A DNA stretch of 64,000 nucleotides from an uncultured Rivularia sp. Lineage in GTDB: Bacteria > Cyanobacteriota > Cyanobacteriia > Cyanobacteriales > Nostocaceae. Made by a program: the position numbers and the translations under genes. Numbering within the stretch: position 1 is the stretch's first letter; every line of letters starts with the position of its first letter. Where the stretch lies: contig OY762007.1 in the NCBI GenBank assembly GCA_963665115.1, forward strand, positions 3,712,001 through 3,776,000. Reading direction: 5' to 3'. The notes under the pieces were generated by a model. The model was not told the origin of the DNA. It was given only the letters and a program-made list of their open reading frames with translations, and ran no database searches. Shown in pieces: positions 21,391 to 62,798 of this stretch.

Positions 21391-21690
21391 ATGAGAATTA
21401 TTGATTTAAAATCTTCAGAACTAGTAGAAGTTCAAGAGAACATTATGGGCGGCGTATATAGTTATGCTTATGCTCAAACATATGCTTCATCAAACGTGGG
21501 TTTGGCACAAGCTAATGCAGCTGCTGTTGGAGAGGAAGCTTACACCTCTACAAATACTTCTACTGCTATTTATAACAGTTCTAATTCTACAATTACAGAT
21601 TCTTATGCAAGCGCAAATGCTTATGCGAAGAAAAATAAAAGCTACTCAAGTTCTTCTCACAACAGTATTTCCTTCTCTATATTTACTTAA
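21391..21690 (+). CDS. Double-glycine-leader small secreted protein, Ser/Ala/Tyr-rich core
   Basis: Leader MRIIDLKSSELVEVQENIMGG; core with AxAxAxAxG...TxTxT...SxSxS pattern shared with 22947 and 51240-52761. Confidence 0.8.
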   Translation: MRIIDLKSSELVEVQENIMGGVYSYAYAQTYASSNVGLAQANAAAVGEEAYTSTNTSTAIYNSSNSTITDSYASANAYAKKNKSYSSSSHNSISFSIFT

Positions 21691-22946: not shown

Positions 22947-23207
22947 CTAGTCTACAGCTGCGAATGAACCAGAACTAGAACCGGAAGAGTGATTGTCAGC
23001 ATATGTGTCAGTGAAAGTCTTTGTGAAAGACTTCCTGCCGAATGCTCTAGAATCTGCAAAAGCTTCAGCAGAATTATCTTCTAAGTCTATTTTGGTTTTT
23101 ACATTGAGCTTCACGAAATCGTTTTGATAGTAAGAGTAGAAGCCAAAACCACCAACAACTTCAGTTCCTTCAACAGCTTCCAAGTGATTTAAATCTAAAA
23201 TATTCAT
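22947..23207 (-). CDS. Double-glycine-leader small secreted protein (putative major substrate of module 1)
   Basis: Leader MNILDLNHLEAVEGTEVVGG; 66-aa core homologous to 51240-52761; AGGAG RBS. Confidence 0.88.
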   Translation of the reverse strand: MNILDLNHLEAVEGTEVVGGFGFYSYYQNDFVKLNVKTKIDLEDNSAEAFADSRAFGRKSFTKTFTDTYADNHSSGSSSGSFAAVD

Positions 23208-36552: not shown

Positions 36553-36594
36553 AAACAAGATATTATTAAGAAAACATTTGGACAAAAAAGATTT

Positions 36595-37386
36595 TCAAGC
36601 AACCTCTAATTGCTGATTTCTCCAAACTTCCCAAGGTGTTTCTCCTTGAGCATACATATCATCTAACTGCTGCTTTTCTTTGAAAGTATCCATAACCCCA
36701 AAAAAGCCAGTATATTTGTAAGAAAATAGTTGTTGTCTGGCAATTAATCTTTGGAAAGGTTCAAGAACAAGTTCTTCTCCTTGATTAATATATTTAAAAA
36801 TCTCTTTCTTAAAGATAAAATAGCCACCATTTATCCATATATCGCGATTTTTAACATCCTGAATATCTTTAACTAAACCATCTTCATCCATATCAACTAA
36901 GTGAAAGCTTTGGCTAGGGCGCACGCATAGGAAACTAGCAATTTTATCGATTTTATGAAAATTTTCAATGTATGTTGGTAGATGTAAATCTGTCAAACCA
37001 TCGCTATAGTTAGCTAAAAATACATCTTCGCCTTCTAAATATTTTTCAACTGCTTTAAATCTTTCACCAATATTAGCAGTTAAACCTGTATCGACAAAAG
37101 TAATATTCCAATCTTCAATATCGCTATTAAATAACTTAATATTTCCTCCATTGGACAAAGTAAAATTGTTAGAAAGCCACTCATTATAATTCAAAAAATA
37201 ACTTTTGATTAAATCGGCTTTATAACCCAAACATAAAATAAAATCTTTATGACCGTAATGTGCATAGTATTTCATCACTTGCCATAGTATCGGTCGATAG
37301 CCAATATTTACCATTGGTTTGGGGATGCTTTCCGAATATTCTCTCATTCTTGTACCAAAACCGCCGCAAAATAAAACTACTTTCAT
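36595..37386 (-). CDS. rfbF: Glucose-1-phosphate cytidylyltransferase
   Basis: CGGFGTRMRE...PKPMV, LCLGYK, VDTG, WINGGYF, MDTFKE. Confidence 0.88.
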   Translation of the reverse strand: MKVVLFCGGFGTRMREYSESIPKPMVNIGYRPILWQVMKYYAHYGHKDFILCLGYKADLIKSYFLNYNEWLSNNFTLSNGGNIKLFNSDIEDWNITFVDTGLTANIGERFKAVEKYLEGEDVFLANYSDGLTDLHLPTYIENFHKIDKIASFLCVRPSQSFHLVDMDEDGLVKDIQDVKNRDIWINGGYFIFKKEIFKYINQGEELVLEPFQRLIARQQLFSYKYTGFFGVMDTFKEKQQLDDMYAQGETPWEVWRNQQLEVA

Positions 37387-37563
37387 ATTTGTTACCTGTT
37401 GATTTAAATACGTTTGATTTGAGCGATAACTTAATAGAACTAATTATTAGTAGATACTAAGTAGGTTGGGATTAAAAATAGTAATTTGGAATAGGGAATA
37501 GAAAATGTACTAAGTCTTTTAAGCGCACGCTACACGAACAAAATTTCAATAGTAATTATATGT

Positions 37564-37666
37564 TAAGCTGTTACGCATTTAATTTGTATTTGACTAGCGG
37601 GAAAGATGCCCGCACTACAAGAATTTGATATTTTAGTTTTATACAATTCAGTTGCACATCAGCTTA
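37564..37666. repeat. Small dispersed inverted-repeat element (TAAGCTG...CAGCTTA)
   Basis: Inverted ends around a central GCGGG-AAAGATG-CCCGC hairpin. Confidence 0.5.
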
Positions 37667-37715
37667 TTAATAAGTATTTATCTGTTCCCTATTCTCCGTT
37701 CCCTTTTATTCAACT

Positions 37716-38957
37716 TTACGAATAAACTTTTACTTCTGGAATTGGTACAACAAATTGACCTCCCCAATCCCGGATATAAGCCATTTGTGACATAATTTCA
37801 TCTTTAAGGTTCCAAGGTAAAATTAATAGATAATCTGGCTTTGTTTCTTGAATTGTATCTGGATGAAAAATTGGAATATGAGTTCCTGGTAAATAAAGAC
37901 CTTGTTTGTGAGGGCTGCGATCTACTGTATAATCAAGAAAATCTGTACGAATACCGCAGTAGTTTAATAGGGTATTTCCTTTTCCCGGAGCGCCATAACC
38001 AACAATTGATTTCCCCTCACTTTTGACTTTAATTAGGAAATTTAGCAATTTATGTTTGGTTTCTTTTACCTGTTGCCCAAAAGAAAAATATGTTTGTAAA
38101 TCTGTAAAACCAGCAGTTTTTTCTCTAGTTTTTAGCTCTAATATTTTTTCAGTAACGGGTTGAGAATTATTTTCTGTATGGCGAGCATAAATTCTTAAGG
38201 AACCACCGTGAGTTGGTAATTCTTCAACATCGAAAATAGTTAAACCGTGATTTGCAAATACTTTTTCAACAGTTAGGTAAGAAAAGTAAGAAAAGTGTTC
38301 GTGATAAATTGTATCAAACTGGTTTTCCTCCATCAATTTCATCAAATGGGGAAATTCCATTGTAATTACTCCTTGGGGTTTAAGAATAATTTTCATCCCT
38401 TTAACAAAATCATTGAGATAGGGAGTATGAGCAAGAACATTATTACCCAGCAATAAGTCAGCACCTACTCCTTTTTCAGCTTGTTCTCTAGCTGTTTCTT
38501 CTCCGAAAAATTTAACAACGGTAGGAATACCTTTTTTAATTGCGACTTTAGCAATATTTCCTGCTGGTTCGATTCCTAATGTCGGTATATTTTTAGCAAC
38601 AAAATACTGCAATAAATAACCATCGTTACTAGCTATTTCTACTACCTGATTTCGGTTACTTAATTTGAAGCGTTCAACTGCCATCTCAACGTAGTTTTTA
38701 GCGTGTTGCAACCAGCTATCGGAATAAGAGGAAAAATAAGCATAGTCGCTAAATATATTTTCGGGAGTAATATATTCTTGTAGCTGCACTAAAAAACATT
38801 TGTGGCAAACATAAGCGTGTAATGGGTAAAACGCTTCCATTTGGTTTTTCTGTTCCGGTTTGCGATAGCTTTCACAAGGAGGAGACATCCCTAAATCTAC
38901 AAATGTATGCTGTAATTCTGTACCGCAGGATAAGCAGTTTCCTTGATGTTTTTGCAT
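37716..38957 (-). CDS. NDP-hexose C-methyltransferase (Zn site plus SAM domain)
   Basis: CLSC...CHKC, EIASNDGYLL, FDTIYHEH, THGGSLR, GYGAPGKGNT, ILPWN. Confidence 0.9.
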   Translation of the reverse strand: MQKHQGNCLSCGTELQHTFVDLGMSPPCESYRKPEQKNQMEAFYPLHAYVCHKCFLVQLQEYITPENIFSDYAYFSSYSDSWLQHAKNYVEMAVERFKLSNRNQVVEIASNDGYLLQYFVAKNIPTLGIEPAGNIAKVAIKKGIPTVVKFFGEETAREQAEKGVGADLLLGNNVLAHTPYLNDFVKGMKIILKPQGVITMEFPHLMKLMEENQFDTIYHEHFSYFSYLTVEKVFANHGLTIFDVEELPTHGGSLRIYARHTENNSQPVTEKILELKTREKTAGFTDLQTYFSFGQQVKETKHKLLNFLIKVKSEGKSIVGYGAPGKGNTLLNYCGIRTDFLDYTVDRSPHKQGLYLPGTHIPIFHPDTIQETKPDYLLILPWNLKDEIMSQMAYIRDWGGQFVVPIPEVKVYS

Positions 38958-39036: not shown

Positions 39037-40933
39037 TTAAATATTAAGAGCAATCAAATTAGAGGCTATGGCTTCTCTTACAGGAAGTGCATCATCCTGA
39101 GCTAGCCTGTTAAACAATTTGTCTACCGATTGAGAAGTTCTATCTATTTTTAAAGCTGATTCAATAATGGTTAGCGTACCTGGCAAATTACCGTTCTTTA
39201 ACGGAATAAAGGCATGAGCTAAACAATAATTAAAGTTTTGAATGCGAGCTTGGGCTGTAATTTTTGCTCGTTTGTCTACAGGTAAATAGCTATGTGAAAT
39301 TTCGATGGCTTTTTGAACTTCTATTGCCATATCCCCGGAATTCCAGCTATAAGAAGTTTCGCTACTAGAATGAACCCGAAAACGAGCTAAAACATCTGGC
39401 TCGTACCACCAATCATAAAAAGCTGCAATACGTTTGTGAAGCTCCCAATCGTTAATATGAGGTATTTCGCAACTATATCCTCCCAACTGCTCGTGAGTTG
39501 TTCGACGAATTACAAGGGATGGTGTCATTACTAAACCGCAAACTCCAATATGCGATAACCAATCTTGCAAAATCCCCTTTTGTTCCTTGTACAACAAGTT
39601 TATTTCTCCCTGGATTCGGGCTTTACCGTTTTCGTTGATATATTCATAGCCAGTACAAGCTGCTCCGACACTATAGGGACAATCCTTAAGACTCTGCTGA
39701 AGTCGGGAATAAAAGCCATAGCAAACTGAGTCGTCATCATGTAAAACGTGAACCCATTCACCTCGGCTCAAGGAAATTCCTACATTCATATTGTTGGTAG
39801 AGCCGATATTCTCAGAATTGCGATAGTAGCGAACTATTCCTCCTGCTAAAGCATCGATTAATTCATGAATGGATGATGTACTGGCATTATCCATTACTAG
39901 AATTTCCATATTTGCTTCCCCAGTCCCACTGCAACAGCACGCTTGCAAGACATTCAAGTATATATTCGGTGCGGTTGTATACCGGAATTACCACAGTCCA
40001 GAAAGGTTGCGGTTTCTCTGGCTCCCTCAGAGGTGGAATTGCCCGAAACTGATAATTTCCAATTTTTACTTTATCTTGAGGAATCGAAGGAGTTATCTGG
40101 ATGGAACAACTTTGATGAGTTTTAATAGCTTTTGCATAGTTAGGATTAAGTAAAGTTAAACCCTGACGATATATTGAAAGTGCCTCAACTAAATTGTTTT
40201 GGGCTTGATAAATTTGACCTAAGCGATTGTAAATATCCCAGTTTTCCGAATTAAGTTTTAAAGCTTGATTGTAAAATGCACAAGCTTCTGCAAATTTTTC
40301 TTGTTCCTGCAATACTATACCTAAACTGTAGTAAAACTCCCAATTACCTGGATGTAAAACTATAGCTTGCTGATAGTAAGCAATTGCGTTGTTTAAATCT
40401 CCTGCCTGCTTGCGGTTAAGACCCAACTGATGATTCAATCGAGAATATAATGGTCGTTTATCTTCTGAAAGTTGACCTTGAGCGTATAAAGCATTCCCCA
40501 AATTCACATATGCTTCCCTACAGTCTGGCTGAATTTCTAGAGCTTTTTTATAAGATGCGATCGCGTTTTCCCACTTACCCAATTTTTGTAAAGCATAACC
40601 AAGATTATTGTGCAGTGGTGCGATATTACAACCCGCAGCTAAAGCGTTTTCGTAAGCATCTACAGCTTGAGAAAATTCCTTATAGGATTGATAGCAATTT
40701 CCTAAAGTATGCCATCTAAATGCGTTTGGCTGTAATCGTACTGCTGCTTCCAGGAATTCCTTGGCATTTTGGGACTCACCTTTTTGCAGTGTTATTAAGC
40801 CTAATCCATGTAAAGCATCGGGTTGAAGGGGCACAATTTCTAATATCCGGCGATATATCTGTTCCGCTTGCTTTAACCGATTGGCAGAATAATGTTGAAC
40901 CGCTGTTTTTAAGGCTTCAGAAATGGTTGCCAT
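39037..40933 (-). pseudogene. TPR plus GT2 glycosyltransferase, split by a +1 frameshift
   Basis: TPR repeats then WTVVIPVYNR...ECLASVLLQW; removing one G at 39925-39927 restores QWTGEANMEI matching paralog QWTGKEEMEI; LHDDD in C half; may be a sequencing error. Confidence 0.85.
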
Positions 40934-42620: not shown

Positions 42621-43847
42621 TTATTGAAACACGATTGATTCAGAGGTAATTTGACTGGAACTCACGTCCGAAATCAGTAATGTTTGTTCGTTGAACAAAG
42701 AATCGAGTTTGAAAACAATACCGTCATTTGTATCAATAATATTACCTTGCTGCAACCATTGCTCGGTATCTATATTGCCCCATCCTTTAAAGACAATTTG
42801 ATCTTCACCCACCTCAAAATCTTGAATAATATCAAAGTCATTTCTTAAGAATGTATCTTTACGGTGGAAAATAAATTTGTCATTACCCTCACCACCAACT
42901 AAAGTATCATCTCCTCTACCACCAATTATCCGATCGTTACCCCAGCCGCCATTGAGCTTATCTTTGCCCTTACCTCCAAATAGTTTATCTTTACCTTGTC
43001 CACCTTCTAAAATATCGTCACCTTTTAATCCATACAGTTTGTCGTTCCCCAAGCTGCCATAAATTTTGTCTGCACTCCTCGTTCCAATTAATCGATCTCG
43101 ACCAATGGTGCCATAAATAACATCTGTACCCAAATTACCAATTAAGCTATCTCCAGCAACTTTAACGGCACTAGTATTAATTTCTACTACTGTTATATTT
43201 GTATTCCTAGAAAAAGTCTTTTGATAGCTGCCAACGGTGTTACTATAAATTTCATCTGAACCATTATTTCCATCAAGATCGGAAATTTGTTCTCCATTGA
43301 GAATAGCAACATTGCAACTACTACCAACTTTAATATTAGCTATTTGTTCGGAGGAAATTAGTTTACCTTTAGTGCCAAAATAATCTAACACTTTGAGACA
43401 ATCTGGATTTGTGGTGTCTAACACCAGAAAAGCACTTTTAGAATTAACTTGGTTATATTCGGTATTAGGATTTTCAATTTCTTTAGCTGTTAAAGCCAAA
43501 TTGACCGAAAAATCAAAAGAAAAAGTTTGATTAGCTTCAATTGCAAAATTAGCAACTACCTGACTTTTACTTTTAGAAGTTCCTGTATAAGTTCCATCAC
43601 CATTCGCATTACTATCAGCGAACAGAAAAGAAAAATTAGCATCTTCAAGGAAAATTGCTTGAGCTTCGGCAATCGCAAAACCTACTCCACCCGTGACTAA
43701 TGTTTCCGTTTGGGAATCAGTCAAAGTTTCTGAAGGGCTGTGACTATAGTTGAAGACATTAGCATCCGCTGTAGCCGTAGCAAAATTCTGGTTAGGATTA
43801 GTTATTGGATCTATTATTGGTTGCAAAAAAATAGTTTCGGGGTGCAT
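42621..43847 (-). CDS. RTX Ca-binding repeat protein whose N-terminal domain matches the PEP-CTERM proteins
   Basis: AIAEAQAIF...SKSQVVANFAIEANQTFSFDFS...KVLDYF aligns with 20041 and 32212; C-terminal GGxGxD repeats and D.I.DF..G.D tail. Confidence 0.85.
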   Translation of the reverse strand: MHPETIFLQPIIDPITNPNQNFATATADANVFNYSHSPSETLTDSQTETLVTGGVGFAIAEAQAIFLEDANFSFLFADSNANGDGTYTGTSKSKSQVVANFAIEANQTFSFDFSVNLALTAKEIENPNTEYNQVNSKSAFLVLDTTNPDCLKVLDYFGTKGKLISSEQIANIKVGSSCNVAILNGEQISDLDGNNGSDEIYSNTVGSYQKTFSRNTNITVVEINTSAVKVAGDSLIGNLGTDVIYGTIGRDRLIGTRSADKIYGSLGNDKLYGLKGDDILEGGQGKDKLFGGKGKDKLNGGWGNDRIIGGRGDDTLVGGEGNDKFIFHRKDTFLRNDFDIIQDFEVGEDQIVFKGWGNIDTEQWLQQGNIIDTNDGIVFKLDSLFNEQTLLISDVSSSQITSESIVFQ

Positions 43848-47759: not shown

Positions 47760-50700
47760 TCAAGCTTCTTTTTTTGTACGCTTAAGTTTTAAAGCTTTAT
47801 CATAAGCTGCCATAGCTTCACCCATCTGCCTTTGTGATTGCAGTACCATTCCTAAGTTGTGGTAAGCTTCTTCAAAATCTGGGTTTAAATGAATTGCCTT
47901 TTGATAGTAAACAGTAGCGGTTTTAGAGTCACCAACTTGTTTTCTGGCATTACCTAATTGAAAATTCAATTGAGCGTAGTAAACTTGTTTTTCGAGAGTA
48001 AGTTTACCTTGAGTATGAAGGATGTTACCTAAATTTACATCCGCTTCTCGGCAGTTGGGCTGAAACTGCAAAGCTTTTTGATAAGATGCGATCGCCTCTT
48101 TCCATTTACCTTGTTCTTCTAAGGTGTAGCCCAAATTATTGTAAATAGTGCCTGCATCCGGCCTCAGAGTAATAGCTTTTTGATAAGCTGATTCTGCTTG
48201 TGCCATTTTTCCTTGGGAGCAGCGCAGATTACCTAAAGCAAACCAAGTTTTTACGGATTTCGGTTGAAATTGCGAAGCTTGAGTCAAAAACTTTTCTGCT
48301 TCCTCAAATTTTCTTTGCTGCTGAGCAATTATTCCCAATCCATACAGCGCTTCTGAATGCTGTGGCTGTTTTTCTATAACCTGATGATATAGCTGTTCGG
48401 CTTCCTTTAAACGACGATTTTGATGATGTTGAGCCGCAAACAGGAATATTTCAGCAGTTTCTTGGGTGTCAAATCGTCTTGATTTATTAATCACTTTTAA
48501 TAGAAAATCTTCGAGCGCCCTGACTGGTTTTAAATCGTCATATAATTTATATTTGTTCTCGGCAACTTGCTCGGACATATATTGCCTATACTGAAAATCT
48601 TTCCCCAAACGGACAGCAATTTGCACGTATTCTTCTTTATTAGAAGCTATCGTCTCTTCAATACCCATCATCTTTAAGATTGCCATACTATGCCGCCCCC
48701 GCATTAAATCGCCAGGTAAAGTGACAATAGGTACGTTACGAGCAACAGATTCTAAAGTTGAATTGCAACCCGACCAACCAATACTATCAAGAAAAACATC
48801 GGCGATCGCGCTGACACCAGCAAACATAGTTGGTCGCATTCGCGGTAAAAATAGGCAATAATCTTGGAAATTAAGCCCTAATTGCTCAAAGGCACGATCT
48901 AAACGCTGACGGAAGACTTCGATTACATCTTCACTTTCATGTTTAATAAATACAAATTTAGCATTGCTTAGCCCTTTAGCAATCAACGGGAAAACATCAT
49001 CATGACTGGGCAAATATTTATATAATGATTGACAGCACCAGAAAAGAATTTCATCTTCTTTTAAACCAATCTCTGTTTTGTTTAGTGTTTGCGGTTCAAT
49101 TGCTAAAGGTGTGTAATGAATCGAGAGATTTGGCAACCGCACTAATTTTTCTGTATAGTTTTCTTGAGCATTTTCCGATTCCATTAAATCGCTACTTAAG
49201 TAATAATCAATTGTCGGAAGTCCACTAGTTTCAGGATGACCCCAAGATGTCATTTGAATTGGCGCTAATCTCAAACATCCCAAATTAACTGTAGTTGGGT
49301 CCATGCCAAATTCTGGAAAAATCAGAATATGTAATTTATCTTCAGCTATTGTTTGACACCACCGTTCAATTGAGCGATTACCTTGAACAAATTTATCGAA
49401 GACATTTGCAGCACTTACTGTGTGTTCGTCTTTTTTAGAATTCGTATAATAGCCGAATAACTCAAATTCACTTTTATCTAGATTTTCTACCCAACCTTTG
49501 ATAGGTATTTTCCAATTAGAATGACCGTAAAAAAACCTAGAAACAATACCAACACGAATTTTTTGGTTTTGCTCTAAATTAGGTAGAGGAAGAGATTTGC
49601 TATATTGCGGATAGCGACTCGACATAATTTTGCAAATCATTTTTCCATAGGTTCGCTGCAAATCTCGGTCATTTAAGCCTTGATATGTTAAATAAAAAGG
49701 TTGTAATGCTCCCACCGCTTCAACTGATTTTGCTCGTTCTTGCTTACTAGCTAATTGAAAGGTTTGAGCTAATTTTTGTAAATGACTTTTATATTGATTG
49801 CGTCGAGACTCAATTTGATCAACCGTAGAATATATAATTGGCAATTGGCTAATACATATTCCCAATTTTGCTGGAGCAAACTTTGGTGATACTTCGAGGG
49901 CTTTTTTAAATGCCCCTATAGCTGCTTCTAATTTATTCTGCTCTTTATACAAAAGTCCTAAATTATAATGAATGCCATCAATATTCGGGTCAATTTTTAT
50001 CGCTTTTTTGAATGATTCTATAGCAGCATCAAATTGATTTAGTTTTTTGAGAAGATTACCTAAATTATTATAACTAGGTACTAAATCGGGTTGGATTTCT
50101 AAAGCTTTTTTGTAATAGACTACTGCTTCTCTATACTTACCTTTTTGCTGTAAAATATTTCCTAATTCGTCATAGCCATTTGCATGGTTGGGTTCAATTT
50201 TTATCGCTTGCTGGTAAGACTTGAAAGCAATATCCAACTTTCCCTGTTTTTGCAGCACATCTCCTAATTTATGATGAGCTTTTACTAAATCGGGTTGTAA
50301 TGCAATAGCCTGCTGATAATACAATTCTGCTGTCTTAAAATCTTCTGCTTTTTGTCTGCCTAAACCAAACTGTAGATTTAAATTTGCGTAATAATTTCCT
50401 TGTTCAGGTGAAAGCTTGTCTTGCAGGTGCAGAGCATTTCCCAGATTCGCTTTCAATTCCACGCTGTTAGGCTGAATTTCCAATGCTTTGTTATAGCAAG
50501 CTACAGCCTTCTCTAGCTTACCCTGCTGTTGCAAAGTCCCACCCAAACAGTTATGTACTGCCACCGCTTCTGGTTGCAAAGCTAAAGCTTGTTGATAATA
50601 CTCTACTGCTTCGTTTAATTTTCCTTGAGCTTGACGCAAATTACCCAACCTGAATAGCGCTTGTGCAAACTCGGGCTGGTATTCTAAAGCTGTTTTCAGC

Positions 50701-50879
50701 AAATTTTCTGCATCTCTATCCTTACCTTTTTCTAAAGCAAGTACACCTAAACCATATAGTGCTTCTGCTTGTTGAGGATTGCTCTCTAGAATTTTACGGT
50801 AAACCCCTTCGGCTTCTGTAAACCGTTTATTTTGATAATGTTTATCGGCTGTTTGAAGAGTTTTTGCTAAGTTTTTCAT
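47760..50879 (-). CDS. TPR-GT41-TPR protein (O-GlcNAc transferase/SPINDLY-like)
   Basis: TPR arrays on both sides of IRVGIVS..F..HS, RLAPIQMTSWGHPETSGLPTIDYY, QSLYK, DVFLDSIGWSGCNST. Confidence 0.92.
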   Translation of the reverse strand: MKNLAKTLQTADKHYQNKRFTEAEGVYRKILESNPQQAEALYGLGVLALEKGKDRDAENLLKTALEYQPEFAQALFRLGNLRQAQGKLNEAVEYYQQALALQPEAVAVHNCLGGTLQQQGKLEKAVACYNKALEIQPNSVELKANLGNALHLQDKLSPEQGNYYANLNLQFGLGRQKAEDFKTAELYYQQAIALQPDLVKAHHKLGDVLQKQGKLDIAFKSYQQAIKIEPNHANGYDELGNILQQKGKYREAVVYYKKALEIQPDLVPSYNNLGNLLKKLNQFDAAIESFKKAIKIDPNIDGIHYNLGLLYKEQNKLEAAIGAFKKALEVSPKFAPAKLGICISQLPIIYSTVDQIESRRNQYKSHLQKLAQTFQLASKQERAKSVEAVGALQPFYLTYQGLNDRDLQRTYGKMICKIMSSRYPQYSKSLPLPNLEQNQKIRVGIVSRFFYGHSNWKIPIKGWVENLDKSEFELFGYYTNSKKDEHTVSAANVFDKFVQGNRSIERWCQTIAEDKLHILIFPEFGMDPTTVNLGCLRLAPIQMTSWGHPETSGLPTIDYYLSSDLMESENAQENYTEKLVRLPNLSIHYTPLAIEPQTLNKTEIGLKEDEILFWCCQSLYKYLPSHDDVFPLIAKGLSNAKFVFIKHESEDVIEVFRQRLDRAFEQLGLNFQDYCLFLPRMRPTMFAGVSAIADVFLDSIGWSGCNSTLESVARNVPIVTLPGDLMRGRHSMAILKMMGIEETIASNKEEYVQIAVRLGKDFQYRQYMSEQVAENKYKLYDDLKPVRALEDFLLKVINKSRRFDTQETAEIFLFAAQHHQNRRLKEAEQLYHQVIEKQPQHSEALYGLGIIAQQQRKFEEAEKFLTQASQFQPKSVKTWFALGNLRCSQGKMAQAESAYQKAITLRPDAGTIYNNLGYTLEEQGKWKEAIASYQKALQFQPNCREADVNLGNILHTQGKLTLEKQVYYAQLNFQLGNARKQVGDSKTATVYYQKAIHLNPDFEEAYHNLGMVLQSQRQMGEAMAAYDKALKLKRTKKEA

Positions 50880-51239
50880 AATTTATACAACTTCTAATAG
50901 TGAGTTTAAAGTTTTTAATATCTGGGATACTTTTAAAATTTTCAAAAATAAAGCTTTTGTAAGTAAGACTATCAATATAACTATGTAACATTCGGGTAGA
51001 CAGGCTTCTCTTCGAGAAGTCGCTTGCTTGCACGTCTACAAAGTCTTATCCCTACTGCCTATTCCCCACAACAAAGATGCCTTGTCATAATTACAATTTT
51101 CAATATCGAGCTACTTAGGATATAATAAAAGAATCCGAAAGCCCAATGACCAGTTGAGCCTTCGGCTATAAAAAATGTACTTGGTTTAAAAGCCAACCCG
51201 ACTCGCAGCCCTCCACGGTAACTGCGAGTTTTGTTTTGA

Positions 51240-51530
51240 TTAATAGGTTACAGAAATTGCTAAAGAGTTGGAGTGTGATTGCTTCCAATCGGTGTAAGTT
51301 AACGAGAAGGTTTCGGTTAAAGTATTGTTACCGAATGCGTTTGCACTCGATTCAGCAGTAGCCAAGTTACCTTTTACATAAACAACGGAGTTAACATCTT
51401 TGTCGATCTCAACAGTTTCATAGATGTCAATATTTACTTCAATATCTTTGCTGATATCGAAATCGAAGTCACCACCAACAACAGCATTTCCTTCAACAGC
51501 TTCTAAGTAGTTTAAGTCGGAAATAATCAT
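51240..51530 (-). CDS. Double-glycine-leader small secreted protein, tandem copy 4
   Basis: Leader MIISDLNYLEAVEGNAVVGG; 76-aa beta-patterned core; GGAG RBS. Confidence 0.9.
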   Translation of the reverse strand: MIISDLNYLEAVEGNAVVGGDFDFDISKDIEVNIDIYETVEIDKDVNSVVYVKGNLATAESSANAFGNNTLTETFSLTYTDWKQSHSNSLAISVTY

Positions 51531-51621
51531 TTTCGTTCTCCAGTAAATTAATTAAATGTACTCGTTTAATACCAACCCAACTCGCATCCCTCCAAGGTAA
51601 CTGCGAGATTGACTCTGACAA

Positions 51622-51912
51622 TTAGTAGGTTGCAGAGATTGCTAAGGAGTTGGAGTGTGATTGCTTCCAATCGGTGTAAGTTAGTGAGAAGGTTTCGGTT
51701 AAAGTGTTGTTTCCGAATGCGTTTGCACTCGATTCAGCAGTAGCCAAGTTACCTTTTACATAAACAACGGAGTTAACATCTTTGTCGATCTCAACAGTTT
51801 CATAGATGTCAATATTTACTTCAATATCTTTGCTGATATCGAAATCGAAGTCACCACCAACAACAGCATTTCCTTCAACAGCTTCCAAGTAGTTTAAGTC
51901 GGAAATAATCAT
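51622..51912 (-). CDS. Double-glycine-leader small secreted protein, tandem copy 3
   Basis: Differs from copy 4 by one residue (SATY vs SVTY). Confidence 0.9.
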   Translation of the reverse strand: MIISDLNYLEAVEGNAVVGGDFDFDISKDIEVNIDIYETVEIDKDVNSVVYVKGNLATAESSANAFGNNTLTETFSLTYTDWKQSHSNSLAISATY

Positions 51913-52088
51913 TTTTGTTCTCCAGTAAATTAATTAAATGTACTTGCTTTAACTCCTGCTCTATCTTTTCTCTGACTAAAGGAATTGACTATAGTAAGTT
52001 TCTAATAGAGCAAGGTGTTAAAAATTTGGCATTACAAACCAATCCAACTCGCATCCCTCCACGGTAACGGCGAGATTGACTCTGACAA

Positions 52089-52379
52089 TTAGTAGGTTGC
52101 AGAGATTGCTAAGGAGTTGGAGTGTGACTGATATTTGTCGGTATAGGTTAACGAGAAGGTTTCGGTCAATGTGTTATAACCGAATGCGTTTGCGCTCGAT
52201 TCAGCAGTAGCCAAGTTGCCTTCTACATAAACAACAGAGTTAACATCTTTGTCGATATCGACGTTTTCATAGATGTCAACATTTACTTCAATATCTTTGC
52301 TGATATCGAAATCAAAGTCACCACCAACAACAGCATTTCCTTCAACAGCTTCCAAGTAGTTCAAATCGGAAATAATCAT
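52089..52379 (-). CDS. Double-glycine-leader small secreted protein, tandem copy 2
   Basis: Same leader; variant residues NVDIYENVD, VEGN, FGYN, DKYQ. Confidence 0.9.
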   Translation of the reverse strand: MIISDLNYLEAVEGNAVVGGDFDFDISKDIEVNVDIYENVDIDKDVNSVVYVEGNLATAESSANAFGYNTLTETFSLTYTDKYQSHSNSLAISATY

Positions 52380-52470
52380 TTTTGTTCTCCAGTGAATTAA
52401 TTAAATGTACTCGTTTAATACCAACCCAACTCGCATCCCTCCACGGTAACTGCGAGATTGACTCTGACAA

Positions 52471-52761
52471 TTAGTAGGTTGCAGAGATTGCTAAGGAGTT
52501 GGAGTGTGATTGCTTGCAATCGGTGTAGGTTAGCGAGAAGGTTTCGGTCAATGTGTTATAACCGAATGCGTTTGCGCTCGATTCAGCAGTAGCCAAGTTG
52601 CCTTCTACATAAACAACAGAGTTAACATCTTTGTCGATATCGACGTTTTCATAGATGTCAACATTTACTTCAATATCTTTACTGATATCGAAATCGAAGT
52701 CACCACCAACAACAGCATTCCCTTCAACAGATTCTAAATAGTTTAAATCCGAAATAATCAT
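52471..52761 (-). CDS. Double-glycine-leader small secreted protein, tandem copy 1
   Basis: Leader with ESVEG; core as copy 2 but DCKQ. Confidence 0.9.
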   Translation of the reverse strand: MIISDLNYLESVEGNAVVGGDFDFDISKDIEVNVDIYENVDIDKDVNSVVYVEGNLATAESSANAFGYNTLTETFSLTYTDCKQSHSNSLAISATY

Positions 52762-53073: not shown

Positions 53074-53853
53074 TTAAGCATAATTTTTTACTTCTTCTTG
53101 CAATTTAATATTATCCAAATTGAATTGAGCTTTTTGTATTAAAGGAACAGTCTTTGCCTTTAACCAATCAGTAAATAATTCATCAATAATTTTTTGACGT
53201 AAATCTTCTTCTAATTCAGGTTGAATAATTTCTTCAACCCAAATTAAATAGATACCTTTTGGTGACGTAATTGGCTTGATAATATGAAGCGGAGTTGCAG
53301 CAAATACAGCTGCTGCAACTTCTGGGCGAAAATCTTCGCGATGTCGGACTCCTTGATAGCCACCTGCACGGCGAAGTTCGGGATCTTGAATATATAAACG
53401 AGCGATTTCTGAGAATGTTATTTCACCCTCTTCAAACGCATAAAATAACTCTAATGCTAAGTCCCTATCTTCTAAGATGACTTCATAAGTGACAGCAGCT
53501 TCATAATTGATTCGGTTTTCGTAAAAGAATTTTTCAATTTGAGGCGCGAATAAATGATTGGCTAGTTTCTTGGAAATCAGGCTGTTACGAACTAATTCCT
53601 CAAAGTTTTGTACTGATAAATGGTTTCTGTTTAGCCAACCCCAAGTATCTTTGGCTGTAGCAAGCTTCTTGTCTAAGCGAAGTTTATCTCCTTCCTGCTG
53701 TAATTCTGCCTCTGTTACCTCAATTCGGGCTTCTGAGGCAGCTTGATTAATTACTGTTTGAGTTGCGATCGCCTCTACAATGTCAGGAATCTGACAAGAT
53801 AACTTTAGCTGATGAATAATCTCTGTAGTTGAAATGTTTAATTGTTCGCCCAT
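53074..53853 (-). CDS. PpiC/rotamase-type foldase-like protein (module 2)
   Basis: Close paralog of 23570-24355; start moved to MGEQLNIST at 53853 because the ORF extension runs through a repeat element. Confidence 0.85.
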   Translation of the reverse strand: MGEQLNISTTEIIHQLKLSCQIPDIVEAIATQTVINQAASEARIEVTEAELQQEGDKLRLDKKLATAKDTWGWLNRNHLSVQNFEELVRNSLISKKLANHLFAPQIEKFFYENRINYEAAVTYEVILEDRDLALELFYAFEEGEITFSEIARLYIQDPELRRAGGYQGVRHREDFRPEVAAAVFAATPLHIIKPITSPKGIYLIWVEEIIQPELEEDLRQKIIDELFTDWLKAKTVPLIQKAQFNLDNIKLQEEVKNYA

Positions 53854-53890
53854 AATGCTATTCTTCTGTAAAACATTTTTTAAATTTAAC

Positions 53891-53947
53891 TTCTTGCAAC
53901 GAGCAAGAAACCGGGTTTCCAAAGGCTCATTGAGTATAGTGCAAGAA
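53891..53947. repeat. TTCTTGCA...TGCAAGAA repeat family member
   Basis: Near-identical to 12772-12829. Confidence 0.6.
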
Positions 53948-54703: not shown

Positions 54704-56266
54704 TTATGATCTGTCTTTCTGCATTTTTTTAAATGGATCTAAAACAAAATCAATTATCCGACGTTGACGAATAATCACCTCTGCATCAGCTGTTTGTCCG
54801 GGGTTTAAAGTAATACGCTTTTCGCCATTGTCTACGTATTGCTTATCCAGGGAGATTTCTAGCTCAAAACTTTCACTGTTTCCTTGGGCTGTTGGCTGTA
54901 CTTTCGAGTCGGGAGATACCCAAGCAACTTTCCCTTCCACAATCCCGTATTCTTGATAAGGATAAGCATCAAATTTGACTTTAACTGGCATTCCTACTTT
55001 TAAGAAACCACTATCTTGTATTGGCATACTCGCTTTGAGAACAACGCCAGTATTCTTGGGAGCAATTTGTGCTATTCTTTGACCGGGCTGTAGAACTTCT
55101 CCAGGTTTGCTAACTGGTAACTCAAAAATTATCCCGTCAATTGGCGATCGCACTATTCTTTGCTGTAACTGTAGCTTTAAGGATGCAATTTGACTGCGTG
55201 TTTGAGCTATTTGAGATTCAGTCGCTAAAATTTTGCTGCTGGTATCTTTGAGTTGTTCTTGAGTTCGCAAAATTGAGAGTTTGGCTGTTTTTAACAAAGT
55301 TTGATAGCTGTTTTGTTGTTCTTTTAATCTCAGCTTGGCTTGCTCGATGTCAGCAGAAAGTTGATTCATTGTTGCCTGATAGCGGCTTGTTTCTTCGGCT
55401 AGACGTAATTGTGCTTGTTTTCCATCAGATAAACTTCTGTCATATAGTCGTTTACTTTCTTGTTGCTCTTTTCTTAGACGATCGACTTGATTTTCAGAAA
55501 CCGCTCCATCCTTGACTAATCGGCTGAAGCGGCTAACTCTTTTGGTATCTATAGTTAAACGGTTTTGAGCGAACTGTTGCTCGTTACTATTTGCTTTAAT
55601 CTGCTGTTGTACTTGATTGAGTAAAGCTTGTTTTTCTAATTTCTGTAGCCGGTAAGCACTCTGTTTCGCATCCAGATTTTGGCTTGCTTGCTGTACTTGA
55701 GCCGTTTTTTCCAAGGCTTGAGATTGATTTTGTTCTTCCTGAATGCTTATTGTTGATAATAGTTGATTTTTCAGTATATCTAATTGTGCTTTTTGGTTTT
55801 CCAATCCAGAAAGCTTTGCTTGAGTCTGCTGTAAATCCGTTTCTAAAATATCGGAGTCGAGTTCTAAAAGAATTTGCCCGGATTTTACCGTATCGCCTTC
55901 CTTAACTGTAACAGCTTTGACACTTCCGCCAGTTCTGGTATCCAGTTTTCTTGTTGCACCTTTCGGTTCGATACGTCCTTTAGCACTTCCCGTTTCATCT
56001 ATTTTCGAGAAAGTAGCCCAAGGTAAAGCCAGGAATATAAAGCCTAACAAAACGTATAATACACCCCTCGTCCATAGCTTGGGTAAACTATCTAAAAGTT
56101 CTTCTGTGGCATAGTGCAAATCGCCTCCCGTATCCGAAGTTGCACTTGATTGCGATTTTTGATCGGTATATTCCGCGTCTGTTTTCGGATTTTGATTGCT
56201 GTTTTGACTCTTGTTATATTCTTCTTCAACAAATGCTGCTGAGCTATCTGGTGATACATATGTCAT
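54704..56266 (-). CDS. HlyD-family membrane fusion protein (module 2)
   Basis: Paralog of 24551-26104; AGGAG RBS before ATG 56266. Confidence 0.93.
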   Translation of the reverse strand: MTYVSPDSSAAFVEEEYNKSQNSNQNPKTDAEYTDQKSQSSATSDTGGDLHYATEELLDSLPKLWTRGVLYVLLGFIFLALPWATFSKIDETGSAKGRIEPKGATRKLDTRTGGSVKAVTVKEGDTVKSGQILLELDSDILETDLQQTQAKLSGLENQKAQLDILKNQLLSTISIQEEQNQSQALEKTAQVQQASQNLDAKQSAYRLQKLEKQALLNQVQQQIKANSNEQQFAQNRLTIDTKRVSRFSRLVKDGAVSENQVDRLRKEQQESKRLYDRSLSDGKQAQLRLAEETSRYQATMNQLSADIEQAKLRLKEQQNSYQTLLKTAKLSILRTQEQLKDTSSKILATESQIAQTRSQIASLKLQLQQRIVRSPIDGIIFELPVSKPGEVLQPGQRIAQIAPKNTGVVLKASMPIQDSGFLKVGMPVKVKFDAYPYQEYGIVEGKVAWVSPDSKVQPTAQGNSESFELEISLDKQYVDNGEKRITLNPGQTADAEVIIRQRRIIDFVLDPFKKMQKDRS

Positions 56267-56423
56267 AGTTTTAACTCCTGATTTGTAAACAAGGAAACGG
56301 GAGAGGGGGGATGGGGAGGTCAAAGGTTATATGTAAGAATTAAGAAGATATAAGTCCCGTTATTTAAGATATTTGCTCATTACCCACTACCTATTACCCA
56401 TTACCAATGCCCAATCCCCAACT

Positions 56424-59400
56424 TTAAGCAGTTTGCGACAACTGCTGTTGATTAAGGTAAAAATAATGACCTTTTTTGTCTATTAATTCTTGATGATTTC
56501 CGCTTTCCACCAATACACCTTTGTCCATCACCAAAATCAAGTCTGCGTTGCGTACTGTCGATAAACGGTGAGCAATAATTACGCTTGTTCTACCTTTGAG
56601 AATCGTTTTCAGATTGTTTTGAATGATACGCTCTGATTCCGTGTCCAGATGACTGGTAGCTTCATCAAACAGTAACAAGCGGGGATTACCCAGTAAAGCA
56701 CGGGCGATCGCCAGGCGTTGCCGCTGTCCTCCAGAGAGCAATCCACCACCTTCACCGATTTGGGTTTCATAGCTTAGCGGTAGTTGTTGGATAAAATCAT
56801 CTGCCCCGGCTAATTGTGCGGCTTGGATAACGTCATCAATAGTTGCTTCTGGGTGAGCAATGGCAATGTTTTCGCGGATAGTACCACCGAATAAAAAGGT
56901 GTCTTGATCTACAACACCGACTTGAGAACGCAGCGAGCGTAAAGCAATCCCATTTACATCCTGACCATCAATTAATACTTTGCCGTCTGTGGGTGGATAT
57001 AACCCTAAAATCAATTTAGAAAGAGTTGTTTTTCCCGAACCACTGCGGCCTACTAAAGCTACCATTTGTTCGGGTTTGATTTCTAAGTTGATATTTTCGA
57101 GTATATTACTCTTACTTTCAGGGTGATAGCGGAAGGTAACATTATCAAAGCGAATGTGACCGTTTAGTCTCTCCAGAATTTTGCGGGGCTTATTATGCAA
57201 GTCTTCTTCGGGTTCTGCCTCTAGGACATCATTAAGACGTTCGGTGGAAATAACAATTTCCTGAAATTGATTCCACAGTTGAGAAAATCTCTGGAAAGGG
57301 GCCTAAGACGTTACCCACCAACATATTAAAAGCAACTAACTGACCGACGCTAAGTTCTCCTTGAATTACCTGCCACGCTCCAAACCACATTAAACCCGTA
57401 CTTGTGAAGGTTTGAATTCCACTAGTAAGCATGGTAAGGCGAATCCCAATCAGCTTAGCTTTAAATGATTTTTTTACCCGATTGTTTAATAGTTCCTCCC
57501 ATTTCCAACGTACAGACTGTTCAATTGCCAGCGATCGCACCGTGCGAATTCCCGTCAAAGATTCGATAATATAGCTGTTTTCCTCGGCTCCGGCATTAAA
57601 AATTTCTCTGGAGATACGGCGTAAAATCCCCGTACTAGCCAGCGCCAGAATGAAAAATGGCGGTACTGTTATCAGCACAAATAATGTCATTTTCCAGCTA
57701 TACCAAAACATCAGGGTGAGATAAACCACTAATGTCAGCATATCTAGGACAATAGACAGGGTTTGTCCGGTAAGAAAACTTTGAATTTTCTGGTTTTCTT
57801 TGATGCGCGAAATAATATCCCCAACAAAACGGGATTCAAAATAGGCAAGAGGCAACCCAAAGGTATGCTTAATAAAGCCTACTAGTAAAGAGACACTGAT
57901 ACGGTTAGCAGTATGAGCGAGCAGGTACGATCGCACTCCGTTCATGGCAATATTGAATAACCCAAAAACGATCATTCCCAAACCAACCGCATTTAAAGTG
58001 GCAATGCTGCGCTGTACCAATACTCTATCTAGTAACAATTGGGTGAAAATAGGTGTTACCAGCCCAAATAGCTGCATAATCACCGAAGCGATAAAGACTT
58101 CTATAAGGACTTTGTAATGAGGTTTGACTAACTCAACAAACTTCCATAAGCCAACATCTTGATTTTCGGTATTTTTGAGCAGGGCTGTGGGTTGTAGCAA
58201 TAAGGCATAGCCAGTCCAGTCTGCTGTAAATTCCTCGTGAGTCAGAGTACGCGAACCGCGAGCTGGATCGCCGACAATTACTTTTTTCTGATTAATTTCA
58301 TAAACAACAATAAAGTGATTTCCCTTCCAGTGGGCGATCGCCGGTAAAGATTGTTCTGCTAATTTCTCTAAAGTAGCTTTTACCGGACGAGTTGCAAAAC
58401 CTATATTTTCTGCCGCAGATGCCAAAGCACGTAAAGAAGCACCACTGCGCCCCGCATTAGTCATATCTCGCAAGCGACTAACGCTAAAATATTTGCCCCA
58501 ATAACGACCAACCATTACCAAGGAAGCTGCACCGCAGTCGGAGGAGCTTTGTTGGGCATAATAAGGGTACCGCTTTGTTAACTGTCCCAACCAATGCCCC
58601 ATTTTTACCTTCGGGCTGGGAAAGTAAGCACGAGATATTTTTTTATCGGGTTTTGCTTGGTTATCTCCTTTTGGAAACGGAATTATTTTATTGCTAGAGT
58701 GCAACCGTTTCTGATGAAGAATTTTTTCTAGGTGGCTGATGTTTTCGAGAAATCCGATCTTTTGGGGAAATTTTGGGGCGATCGCCATTAGTCGTAATAA
58801 ATTCTGCTAATTCCGGGCAATGTTGCAGTGCTGTTTGCAAGTCTTCTTGTTTGAGAAAATAAGCAATAGTAGGTTGAACTACTTGTAAGTTATCTTGTTT
58901 TTCAAAAGAATATATCTTACCCAGCGTCAGAAGTTCGTTATCGGAATTTAATATTTCACCTCGATGTAACAGCCACAATTTAAAATCTTGTTCCCAAGGG
59001 ATTTTTGCAGAGGCTTCTAATTTATACTTTTCAAATAGCGATAAAGCCTGAAGTAACCCGCTAACTTGAGATGAATATTGAGGAAATTGGGAGTTTTGCC
59101 GACATAACAGTAGTAAATCCCAAATGTCTGCTTTATCTAACAATTTTTGACGAATTTTAGGATATTTATCCATCAAAGACTGTAGAACTTCTTGTTTAAG
59201 AAAGCAAATTTTTAAATTATGCGATGCTCTACCAGCATAAGGAATAAATTGTTGCTCAAATAAAGTAGCTTCACCGAATGATTCTCCTGCTGAAAGGGTT
59301 GTAACTAGATTTTCAAAGTAGTCTAAAAGTCTAACTTTCCCGTCAAGGACAATATAAAGCCCTTTTTCAGCTTCCGTTACCTGCCAAAACAGCTTCGCAA

Positions 59401-59512
59401 CTGGTACATCTATCGTTTCAGCCGTTTCTATACAATTTCGTAATTCCTGCTCCGAGATGTTTTCACCTAAAGCGGAAGTAATTTTTTGTTCTATATTGTC
59501 TTGTACAAACAC
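56424..59512 (-). pseudogene. Peptidase-containing ABC transporter (module 2), split into three ORFs by two +1 frameshifts
   Basis: cNMP-like part 58694-59512; C39 (QQSSSDCG, AHWKGNHF, VGDP) and TMD 57232-58788; NBD 56424-57200; removing one base at 57293-57297 restores GPFQRFSQLWNQFQE; may be sequencing errors. Confidence 0.88.
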
Positions 59513-60306: not shown

Positions 60307-61861
60307 CTGTTATCTAATCTTTACCCATAAATAGACATATTTACCCATATTGTCCAGATATAGTGTTAGGCGTGTAATAGGTATTTACAGTAAAGTCTGC
60401 CGTGGGGAGTATCCCCACGGCGAGCTTTACAACAAAGCGATGGTTAAAAGTTGTTGAGGCGAATCAGCAACTTTGCCTTTTATGCTAGTTGAATTTTTAA
60501 GAATTAATAATTTTAACATTTACACTATTAATGGTAGTAAGAAGGATGATATGTTTATATCTAAATAATCTAAAAATAGATAGTTTAAATTTCTAAAAGT
60601 TGAAGTCGGAAAGATTATACAATGTTACTCGGATTTAAAACAGAATTAAAATTAAATAACAATCAAAGAACTGTTTTACTTAAACATTGTGGAGTTTCTA
60701 GACATGCTTGGAATTGGGGATTAGCATTAACCCGCGCAATATTAGAAAATAATAAAATTAATCCTGATTCTAAAATAAAATTTCCAAGTGCGATTGATTT
60801 GCATAAATACTTAGTAGCTTTGGTCAAACCAGAAAATTCTTGGTACTATGAGTGTTCTAAGTCTGCACCACAATACTCTTTAAGAAATTTATCTACTGCT
60901 TGGAAAAGATGCTTCAAAAAAATCAGTGGTCAACCAAGATTTAAAAAGAAAGGTAAGAATGATTCGTTTACTTTAGAAGGAACTTGTAAGACTATAAATA
61001 GTTTTACTATTCAAGTTCCAAAGATAGGTAAATTAAAAACTTATGAAAGATTACCATCTCTAGATAAAATAAAATCTGTAACTATATCCCGTCAAGCTGA
61101 TAGGTGGTTTATCAGCTTTAAGATTGATATCCAAATACAGAATAATTGTAATACAACTGTCGTAGGTGTAGATTTAGGAGTCAAATCTCTGGCTACTTTA
61201 TCAACAGGTGAAGTTATAGAGGGAGCAAAATCCTATCGTAAAAATAAGACTAAATTATCTCGATTGCAGTGGTTAAATCGCAATAAAATAATTGGTTCTA
61301 AAAATTGGAGAAAAGCTCAACTGAAAATAGCTCGACTTCATAGAAGAATTTCCAATATAAGAGCATATTCTATCCATAAATTGACATCATTATTAGCCAA
61401 GAACCACGGAACGATAGTGATAGAAGATTTAAATGTATCGGGTATGATGAAAAATCATAAACTAGCCTTATCGATTTCTGATATGGGATTTTATGAAGTT
61501 AGAAGACAACTTGAATACAAATGTAAATTGTACGGTTCTAAATTAGTTGTAGTAGATAGATGGTTCCCATCATCTAAAGCTTGTTCTAATTGTGGTCATA
61601 AAAAGGAAGTACTCTCTCTAAGTGAAAGACTGTTTGATTGTGAGAACTGTAATTTTACGATTGACCGCGATTTAAACGCTGCAATCAATTTATGTAAGGC
61701 CGGAGGCGGAGCGTCTCCGGCTCCGCTGTCAGTTAGACAGTTTCAGCCTGTGGATGGGAAGTAGCCGACTACCCCAGTTTGAAGCAGGAAGTAAACGCCA
61801 AAATGATATATGTCTAGATTTGTCTATTTATAGGTAGTTTTGGGTAAGTTTTATGTAACGG
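60307..61861 (+). mobile_element. Non-autonomous IS607/IS200-605-type element (tnpB only)
   Basis: Left end CTGTTA...TTACCCA-TAAATAGACA mirrors the right-end reverse complement CCGTTA...TTACCCA...TAAATAGACA; no tnpA ORF; boundaries approximate. Confidence 0.7.
60622..61764 (+). CDS. tnpB: TnpB RNA-guided endonuclease
   Basis: GFKTELKLNN start; RuvC GVDLG, IEDL, DRDLNAA; Zn finger CSNC...CENC. Confidence 0.95.
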   Translation: MLLGFKTELKLNNNQRTVLLKHCGVSRHAWNWGLALTRAILENNKINPDSKIKFPSAIDLHKYLVALVKPENSWYYECSKSAPQYSLRNLSTAWKRCFKKISGQPRFKKKGKNDSFTLEGTCKTINSFTIQVPKIGKLKTYERLPSLDKIKSVTISRQADRWFISFKIDIQIQNNCNTTVVGVDLGVKSLATLSTGEVIEGAKSYRKNKTKLSRLQWLNRNKIIGSKNWRKAQLKIARLHRRISNIRAYSIHKLTSLLAKNHGTIVIEDLNVSGMMKNHKLALSISDMGFYEVRRQLEYKCKLYGSKLVVVDRWFPSSKACSNCGHKKEVLSLSERLFDCENCNFTIDRDLNAAINLCKAGGGASPAPLSVRQFQPVDGK

Positions 61862-62033: not shown

Positions 62034-62798
62034 TCAACTAAAGAAACCTGAAGAACTAGTAAGTTCAAAGTTGTAGTATATGTAGTCAAATTCAACATCT
62101 AACCATTGTTGAAACATATTATCAAGAATTTCTTGATATCGGTTGGGCGTTAATTCTGCGGGTATATAGTCTTCAACTATAAATAAATGATACCCATTTT
62201 CAGTTTTGATCGGACCAACCAATTGTTTCGGAGATGCGCTAAATACTAGAGGTGCTATTTCTGGCATGACAGCCCATCGATAAACTTTTCCCTCGTACCC
62301 GCATTTATATCTACGATTTTCATCAATATCGTGAAGACGAGCTGCTTGATAAAAGCTGATTTCACCTTCTTCAATCTGATAATACAATTCTTGAGCTAGT
62401 TTGTCGTCGTCTACAATAAATTGGTATAAAACAACTTGTTCAAATTTTGAGCGGTTTTTAATGAAAAACTGTTCTACTTCCTTACCAAATAGTGTCATAG
62501 ATAGCTTTTGTTTGAGCAAAAGGTTGCGAATCCCAACTTCCCAATCTAACGGAGTCAGCATTTGCTGTTCTAACCATTTAACTGTGTCGCTAGCTTTTTC
62601 TAAACGTTTGTCTCTACGCTGACGGTTTGCTTCAATCTCAATTTCTTCTGTAGTAACATTTATACCTTTTTGAAGTGCAGTTTTTTCAATAATTCTTTGA
62701 TATAGAACCGCTATACATATTTCTTTTAACTTTATTTCCGTTTTGAGGAAGTTAATAATTTCATCAGGCTCCATAACTATTTTTAATTGGTTATTCAT
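62034..62798 (-). CDS. PpiC/rotamase-type foldase-like protein (third, more divergent paralog)
   Basis: LAQELYYQIEEGEISFYQAARLH...RRYKCGYEG...VGPIKTENGYHLF; no signal peptide. Confidence 0.85.
   Translation of the reverse strand: MNNQLKIVMEPDEIINFLKTEIKLKEICIAVLYQRIIEKTALQKGINVTTEEIEIEANRQRRDKRLEKASDTVKWLEQQMLTPLDWEVGIRNLLLKQKLSMTLFGKEVEQFFIKNRSKFEQVVLYQFIVDDDKLAQELYYQIEEGEISFYQAARLHDIDENRRYKCGYEGKVYRWAVMPEIAPLVFSASPKQLVGPIKTENGYHLFIVEDYIPAELTPNRYQEILDNMFQQWLDVEFDYIYYNFELTSSSGFFS

Follow-up and report, generated by a model that had tools for sequence, protein, structure and literature searches.

Gene clusters that pair small GG-leader precursors with a peptidase exporter were sorted into groups by Wang, Fewer and Sivonen in 2011 (PMC3140520). 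As far as the accessible text of that report goes, their group II combines a long PCAT of cNMP (CAP_ED), C39, membrane and ATPase parts with HlyD and SurA/rotamase genes, a HetP-like neighbor, precursor arrays and the leader motif KIXDLXYLEX10GG, and M16 peptidases are mentioned as well. The same text assigns the products neither a function nor a structure and describes their cores as little conserved. In Synechococcus elongatus, four small GG-leader genes (ebfG1-4) lie beside the PCAT gene pteB and an HlyD gene, and their products are secreted, leader-cleaved, Ala/Ser-rich matrix proteins (PMC4997328, PMC9981879), of which EbfG1-3 bind amyloid dyes and EbfG2 forms fibrils (PMC9981879). GG-leader matrix amyloids are therefore already published, a precedent that an earlier note on the DNA studied here had missed. 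EbfG proteins have been reported to lack homologs; a second genome carries three EbfG1-3-like genes with 44-58% identity (G053:C1:1047158-1048127; L057, L059, L060).

Three further systems are related in outline. The CT pilus of Microcystis is a surface filament built from the small beta-rich subunit MrpC (PMC12397347; PDB 9BTQ), an example of a beta-rich cyanobacterial filament encoded beside a GT41 gene. The Fap system of Pseudomonas, in the part of its description available, exports through Sec, has a C39 peptidase in the periplasm, and builds its fibers from major and minor subunits that carry Asn/Gln-rich repeats (PMC5557850). The CTB family (PF28158) also consists of cyanobacterial tandem small GG-type proteins. 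In addition, Anabaena GG proteins with predicted amyloid hotspots are listed in the accessible portion of PMC12267927, and some of them may belong to the family described below.

The locus studied here, within a 64,000-nucleotide stretch of an uncultured Rivularia sp. (the window), shares the exporter architecture, the HlyD and SurA/rotamase genes, the HetP-like neighbor, the precursor array and the leader motif of group II, and is a group II cluster as that report's accessible text defines it. In contrast to the little core conservation reported there, its core is conserved across two phyla and also occurs in Sec-type and leaderless fusion forms. The family motifs were not found in the text of the 2011 supplement, where members may be given just as locus tags. 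With EbfG the locus shares a GG leader beside a PCAT and an HlyD gene, and with the CT pilus the low quality of AlphaFold monomers. The O-GlcNAc transferase gene that adjoins the CT pilin gene has a GT41 counterpart here, whose catalytic part recurs in only 2 of 20 related loci. The Asn/Gln-rich repeats of Fap are absent from the core.

The gene array and its neighbors

The array consists of four head-to-tail 96-codon ORFs on the minus strand, at 52471..52761 (copy 1), 52089..52379 (copy 2, the query for all searches), 51622..51912 (copy 3) and 51240..51530 (copy 4). Each encodes a 96-residue precursor with a 20-residue leader, in which the GG occupies residues 19-20, and a 76-residue core. 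The four near-identical GG-leader genes of the earlier note are thus real: the proteins are 92-99% identical, and the genes form a 300-nt four-copy repeat at 89-100% nucleotide identity. Any two copies differ at 9-31 nucleotides and 1-8 amino acids. Synonymous changes are the majority whichever pair is compared, 8-18 codons differing by these alone, the pattern expected of working duplicates. The core sequence quoted in that note is exact for the copies at 51240 and 51622, while those at 52089 and 52471 deviate from it at V34, N39, D41 and E53. Its description of the core as acidic, Pro-free and almost Cys-free was borne out (pI 4.05; 13-14 Asp and Glu vs 3-4 Lys and Arg; no proline; a single cysteine in one copy only).

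Each stop codon is followed by a 61-nt repeat (51186-51246, 51565-51625, 52032-52092 and 52414-52474) that is part of the duplicated unit and folds into a weak hairpin (z -2.2 to +0.6). After copy 4, an intrinsic-terminator-like 12-bp hairpin with a U tract (51135..51165, minus strand, z -2.05) likely marks the end of a four-gene transcript. Promoter-like sites were no commoner than chance, with 6 found vs 6.9 expected. In contigs from four sequencing runs of one study, coverage was single over the distinct spacers and ~2x over the coding parts that the copies share, which makes a collapsed or expanded assembly repeat unlikely. The array is not bridged end to end by any of these contigs, and the window itself may derive from the same runs, so they serve as an assembly check and not as a sign of spread.

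The copies look highly expressed. Their C-ending codons for Phe, Tyr, Asn and Ile (0.58-0.69 vs a genome median of 0.26; binomial p of 9e-6 to 9e-4) come near those of psbA, rbcL and groEL and fall at the 99.3-99.8th percentile of long ORFs, a comparison set of genes longer than the 96-codon copies. The ribosome-binding sites, called strong in the earlier note, are in the top 8-9% of long-ORF starts, strong and not extreme. Its suggestion that the product is needed in bulk is backed indirectly, by this codon bias and by near-identical tandem copies that also occur in other genomes.

To compare neighborhoods, ~20 kb was surveyed around the family loci of 20 of the 38 other positive genomes, picked mainly by score. 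Directly upstream of the array, on the same strand, are a PpiC/SurA-like PPIase that is likely an export chaperone (53074..53922), an HlyD-family adaptor (54704..56323, TIGR01843 above cut-off) and a PCAT joining cNMP, C39 peptidase and ABC exporter parts (56424..59512), each with homologs in 18 of the 20 surveyed loci; two loci have neither PCAT nor HlyD within ~10 kb. This export cluster directly upstream was missed in the earlier note. Given its position, the simplest role for the leader is to direct export, and the block on assembly suggested there would be an additional, putative role. The PCAT is split into three ORFs in this assembly, with the catalytic Cys and His motifs present. At each break there is one extra base that is absent from the contigs of three runs, the contigs of the fourth failing to bridge one break and not showing the other. 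A broken exporter was accordingly rejected, and the PCAT is most likely intact. Split overlapping ORFs also occur at 34435-35777 and 39037-40933, where single-base assembly errors are likely too. Farther upstream, an IS605/TnpB-like gene on the opposite strand (60622-61764) lies between the exporter and a second PPIase-like gene (62034..62798, minus strand), and beyond the window end there are the HetP-like gene (L052:2838-3308; NF037966, 118 bits) and a third PCAT (L052:5186-8344).

Directly downstream, a TPR protein with a GT41 glycosyltransferase part (47760..50879, minus strand) is a possible modifier of the product. Its catalytic part was found in only 2 of the 20 loci, leaving GT41 glycosylation unsupported as a core feature. 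Beyond it are two RTX proteins, and RTX genes occur in 10 of the 20 loci. The N-terminus of one of them (42621..43847, minus strand) resembles strands b2-b3 of the core (20 bits, more than any of 300 shuffles; hhalign P 0.004), and this protein is a possible minor component.

A fifth member of the family, divergent and with its N-terminal strand shortened (22947..23207, minus strand), adjoins a second PPIase-HlyD-PCAT cluster (23570-29291). Just upstream of this second cluster, 16098-19536 holds what we take to be a pair of M16-like peptidase genes. A GG-leader paralog on the plus strand (21391..21690; prob 64%; 28 bits, shuffle max 19) has the small-residue strands only, without the long hydrophobic strand, and might possibly act as a cap or nucleator; GG-leader paralogs of this kind were seen in several surveyed loci. 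The interval 21391-22789 holds more than one small GG-leader gene, at 21391-21690 (plus strand) and 22463-22789 (minus strand), together with a Ser-rich short ORF of similar strand pattern in which no leader was found (22157-22351, minus strand), and subfamilies matching the small genes of this interval recur in related loci. Two PEP-CTERM-like proteins (20041-20838 and 32179-33027) and the RTX protein at 42621-43847 apparently have an unnamed Ala/Ser/Phe-rich N-terminal domain in common. PEP-CTERM-like homologs occur in 6 of the 20 loci, and profile comparisons did not support these proteins as carriers of the core module. Between the two export clusters, at 33092-38957, sugar-nucleotide modification genes, labeled by sequence reading as nucleotidyltransferase, deacetylase-like, C-methyltransferase-like and aminotransferase-like, stand beside TPR-GT2 genes.

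Breadth and forms of the core family

A homology search with copy 2 gave 78 matches among 120 candidates, the closest named homolog among them being from a Rivularia MAG (90%). The breadth of the family, a check proposed in the earlier note, proved large, with 528 clusters at 50% identity. Family members turned up in 39 of the 401 genomes searched in the phylum and in none of the genomes sharing only the phylum with the window. Copies at least 85% identical were found in 6 of the 20 surveyed loci, and L050, a locus below the score threshold, has further near-identical copies. One gene, at L041:10533-10799, combines the family leader with a core made of a DKY repeat run and a b1-like tail.

The core corresponds to no curated family. 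None of 150 members matched a bacteriocin or bacteriocin-precursor, pilin or amyloid model in Pfam or NCBIfam, the Fap and curli amyloid families included, and stray matches concerned one or two members each. A CTB-named model was likewise matched by none of the 150, although the Pfam release used may predate PF28158; CTB is an Atlas lead only (feature score 0.79; 110 shared features; rank 12), and all leads from the Atlas scored below 0.9. Two profiles gave no match to the CT pilin MrpC at E up to 10 (9BTQ is included at least in the fold library), searches of PDB chain sequences gave nothing below E 0.19, and the plasmid search found no homologs of the family. A phylum-wide primer search was negative in all 401 genomes, and the single match from a primer scan of genome contigs, in Planctomycetaceae, was put down to chance. 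The transcriptome set of Acetabularia acetabulum (EukProt) contains a homolog, P0210, that starts like a signal peptide and has GGGGG and Cys-bearing ends; it is either a eukaryotic acquisition or a contaminant. In the literature searched, which included few subscription papers, no description of the core or its fusions was found.

A second branch belongs, where names are given, to Pelagibius, Kiloniellaceae and Pseudomonadota (alphaproteobacteria). Among 110 new matches, 96 carry a Sec-type peptide (signal peptides judged by eye) and a D-x-V-T-A-A/G-G propeptide before the core, a possible parallel to Fap as far as the available account of that system allows. This form also occurs in tandem, in Pelagibius litoralis (HBA54_27595/27600). 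Among the best 8000 candidates of a search for longer forms there were at least 46 longer, leaderless homologs, 45 of which start directly at the post-GG position, an independent mark of where the mature core begins. In 37 of these 46 a domain of 200-325 residues is inserted between b2 and b3, and the other 9 are fused otherwise, some to vWA. Domain models scored above cut-off for vWA in P0357 and P0362 and for choice-of-anchor L in P0372, and in most long forms scanned the inserted or fused domain matched nothing. Long and short forms share a locus-tag series and a same-sized contig in at least two named genomes (HBA54_27565; AAFX81_13410/13420/13425). Co-location in alphaproteobacteria was deduced from such tags and contig sizes, except on a single 1.6-kb contig from a metagenome scan, where a short, apparently leaderless form lies next to an exporter gene, presumably of the PrtD-like type I kind. 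Two proteins close to GG-leader members, P0181 and P0219, have the core fused to larger C-terminal domains, and fusion forms may thus exist on the cyanobacterial side too. A portable core that accepts domain inserts is unexpected for a toxin and expected for a module with major and minor subunits.

Strand pattern, covariation and a proposed extracellular fiber

The alternating pattern noticed in the four cores is a property of the whole family profile, at residues 22-52, 57-67, 70-80 and 85-93. In b1, the even positions 22-52 are mostly large and hydrophobic, with Lys at 30 and 44 (K44 in 91%) and Ser or Ala at 48. Odd positions 57-67 and 85-93 are almost all Ala, Ser or Gly, and even positions 70-80 mostly Thr, Ala or Ser. 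The three later strands recur every 15 residues. One of their faces is made of Ala, Ser, Thr and Gly, and the other carries larger side chains, E60 and E/Q73 among them.

Mean-field covariation was computed on 325 sequences, a modest depth (Neff 204), with 15 column shuffles as control. Six small-face b3-b4 pairs at +15 had a mean z of 7.5; the large face reached 0.8, and no shuffle exceeded 5.6. This +15 ladder appeared separately in the cyanobacterial-leader set (7.5) and in the other set (5.2), with pair states switching between T-S and A-A. Among 162 tree-independent pairs, divergence-stratified, the six ranked 2, 5, 6, 9, 22 and 37 of 1770; only stratified ranks were used, the unstratified tree-pair p-values being inflated (416 of 1770 below 1e-4). 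Antiparallel ladders with sums of 135, 150 and 165 coexist with the +15 ladder, and the pair 76-89 is also strong. As b3 and b4 cannot be both parallel and antiparallel in one chain, a second chain is indicated. Of 165 pairs between the inner face of b1 and the outer face, 12 are coupled, vs 0 of 198 between b1 and the small face (4 of 150 vs 0 of 179 with tree-independent pairs). The self-offset of b1 at +4 has a mean z of 1.6 vs 0.0 in the other strands; this +4/+6 signal is weak. Over 14 residues, b1 drifts by about three side-chain positions across the strands. The antiparallel ladders, b2-b3 at +15 and the b1 stagger are all weak (mean z 1-3), and under tree-pair control only single pairs of the weak ladders survive.

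AF2 monomers were of low confidence (pLDDT 62 and 53, pTM 0.34 and 0.25) and had b3-b4 as a sheet pair in both; Foldseek with the better of them gave nothing at E <= 0.001, a result of little weight for a model of this quality. Prediction of a four-core complex reached ipSAE 0.01 and 0.12 vs a mark of 0.42; the controls did not fold, and the outcome counts neither for nor against assembly.

The array product is probably the major subunit of an exported modular extracellular beta fiber. Codon bias, tandem copies elsewhere, the lack of bacteriocin matches, the domain-display fusions and a covariation difficult to accommodate in a single chain all point to a polymer subunit. The bulk, beta-rich, non-bacteriocin polymer subunit of the earlier note thereby gains indirect backing, with the filament itself a prediction. 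The precursor would leave through the neighboring peptidase-ABC/HlyD system, the PCAT cutting the 20-residue leader after GG, as suggested by established PCAT chemistry, shown for EbfG/PteB, and polymerization would take place outside the cell after leader removal. The 11-residue strands b2 (55-67), b3 (70-80) and b4 (85-95) would form two sheets zipped face to face by Ala, Ser and Thr, with strands roughly across the fiber axis. Partner chains would be related by a two-fold axis and swap strands, each b3-b4 sheet receiving the b2 of another chain; such a swapped two-sheet sandwich accounts for the +15, +30 and sum-135/150/165 patterns. The hydrophobic face of the 30-residue b1 (22-53), together with K44, would cover the outer face of several subunits (L56, L71, E73, F75, L90 and I92), leaving the Asp/Asn-rich side of b1 exposed to solvent. 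A stagger of ~4 residues per subunit would equal three strand spacings, and a three-strand rise (~14 A), being about four residues of extended chain, fits a b1 staggered along the fiber. For K44, near E73, a Lys-Asn/Asp isopeptide cross-link was considered. Paralogs and fusion forms would be minor subunits, with vWA and further domains displayed at the C-terminus or in the loop between b2 and b3, and the job of such a fiber is likely adhesion or matrix scaffolding.

A monomer accommodates the contacts suggested by covariation less well than a three-layer beta polymer with contacts between chains, and both this reading and the layered geometry are put forward as hypotheses, the secondary ladders and the stagger being weak. 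More tentatively, the family may represent a new class of surface fiber common to cyanobacteria and alphaproteobacteria. Fibers of this class would be built around a cross-beta core, chain-swapped and zipped by Ala, Ser and Thr, inside a sheath of N-terminal strands that are long and staggered. GG cleavage would release the subunits for assembly, three export routes (PCAT, Sec plus propeptide and leaderless type I) would supply them, and minor subunits would present exchangeable domains of 200-300 residues in one loop; all of this taken together is possible rather than probable.

The inter-chain covariation and the fusions require oligomerization only, and the gene dosage would also suit a surface coat, so the core could instead build a closed oligomer or a two-dimensional surface lattice acting as a display hub and not an open fiber; the contacts between chains suit a closed oligomer equally well. 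We consider this reading unlikely: a 30-residue b1 (~100 A when extended) lying over 11-residue strands with a +4/+6 self-offset suggests staggered repetition, and the length of b1 differs across members.

An EbfG-like, loosely ordered matrix amyloid, or a single-chain beta-solenoid of 15-residue coils stacking end to end, would do without the three-layer design. The export logic is the same as that of EbfG1-4 (PMC9981879), and a +15/+30 period is also a solenoid signature. Against the family HMM, the EbfG cores, taken from the locus of G403 whose products match published peptides, score 3.6-6.5 bits, values reached by 4-45 of 300 shuffles, with EbfG3 and EbfG4 slightly above most shuffles (reached by 4 and 6 of 300). 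Nevertheless, the EbfG1-3 profile shows no detectable homology to the core (hhalign prob 0.9%, E 0.06), and a remote relationship suggested by eye is unsupported in view of this result and the near-shuffle scores. The systems differ in other ways too: EbfG1-2 have a Pro-rich start, and EbfG paralogs are 44-65% identical, vs Pro-free cores and 92-99% for the array; the 714-residue PteB is without the cNMP extension that the array PCAT has; and the EbfG amyloid hotspot A-(F/I)-N-I-(G/S) is absent from the four cores. As the +15 signal is confined to one face, within-coil offsets of 4-6 in b2-b4 are at zero and b1 couples specifically to the outer face, an EbfG-like amyloid or a solenoid seems unlikely as well.

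A still weaker case, which we regard as very improbable, is that the product acts as a toxin of the unmodified bacteriocin or microcin kind, or as a signal peptide, and perhaps forms amyloid: GG leader plus PCAT clusters are classed as putative bacteriocin clusters in the accessible text of PMC3140520, and microcin MccAB1 is described as both antibacterial and amyloid-forming in that of PMC13188072, but the core is acidic, matches no bacteriocin family, is conserved across phyla and not hypervariable, and tolerates inserts of 200-325 residues, and the ORF list shows no immunity-like small ORF of at least 60 residues in the array unit.

Implications for cyanobacterial bacteriocin clusters

Against the literature searched, the export setting and the general idea of a GG-leader matrix fiber are already known, and no description was found there of the cross-phylum core, the three export routes, the display forms or the predicted layered polymer. 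The predicted three-layer architecture has no counterpart in PDB sequence searches, and the 76-residue core is small enough for a direct test. Its domain-accepting loop would offer a ready scaffold for protein display on a fiber. Many cyanobacterial 'bacteriocin' clusters are without a demonstrated product. If the proposed reading is true, a common subset of them builds a surface fiber, and the builders would be lineages that form mats, crusts and biofilms, among them Rivularia, Nostoc, Microcoleus and Tolypothrix.
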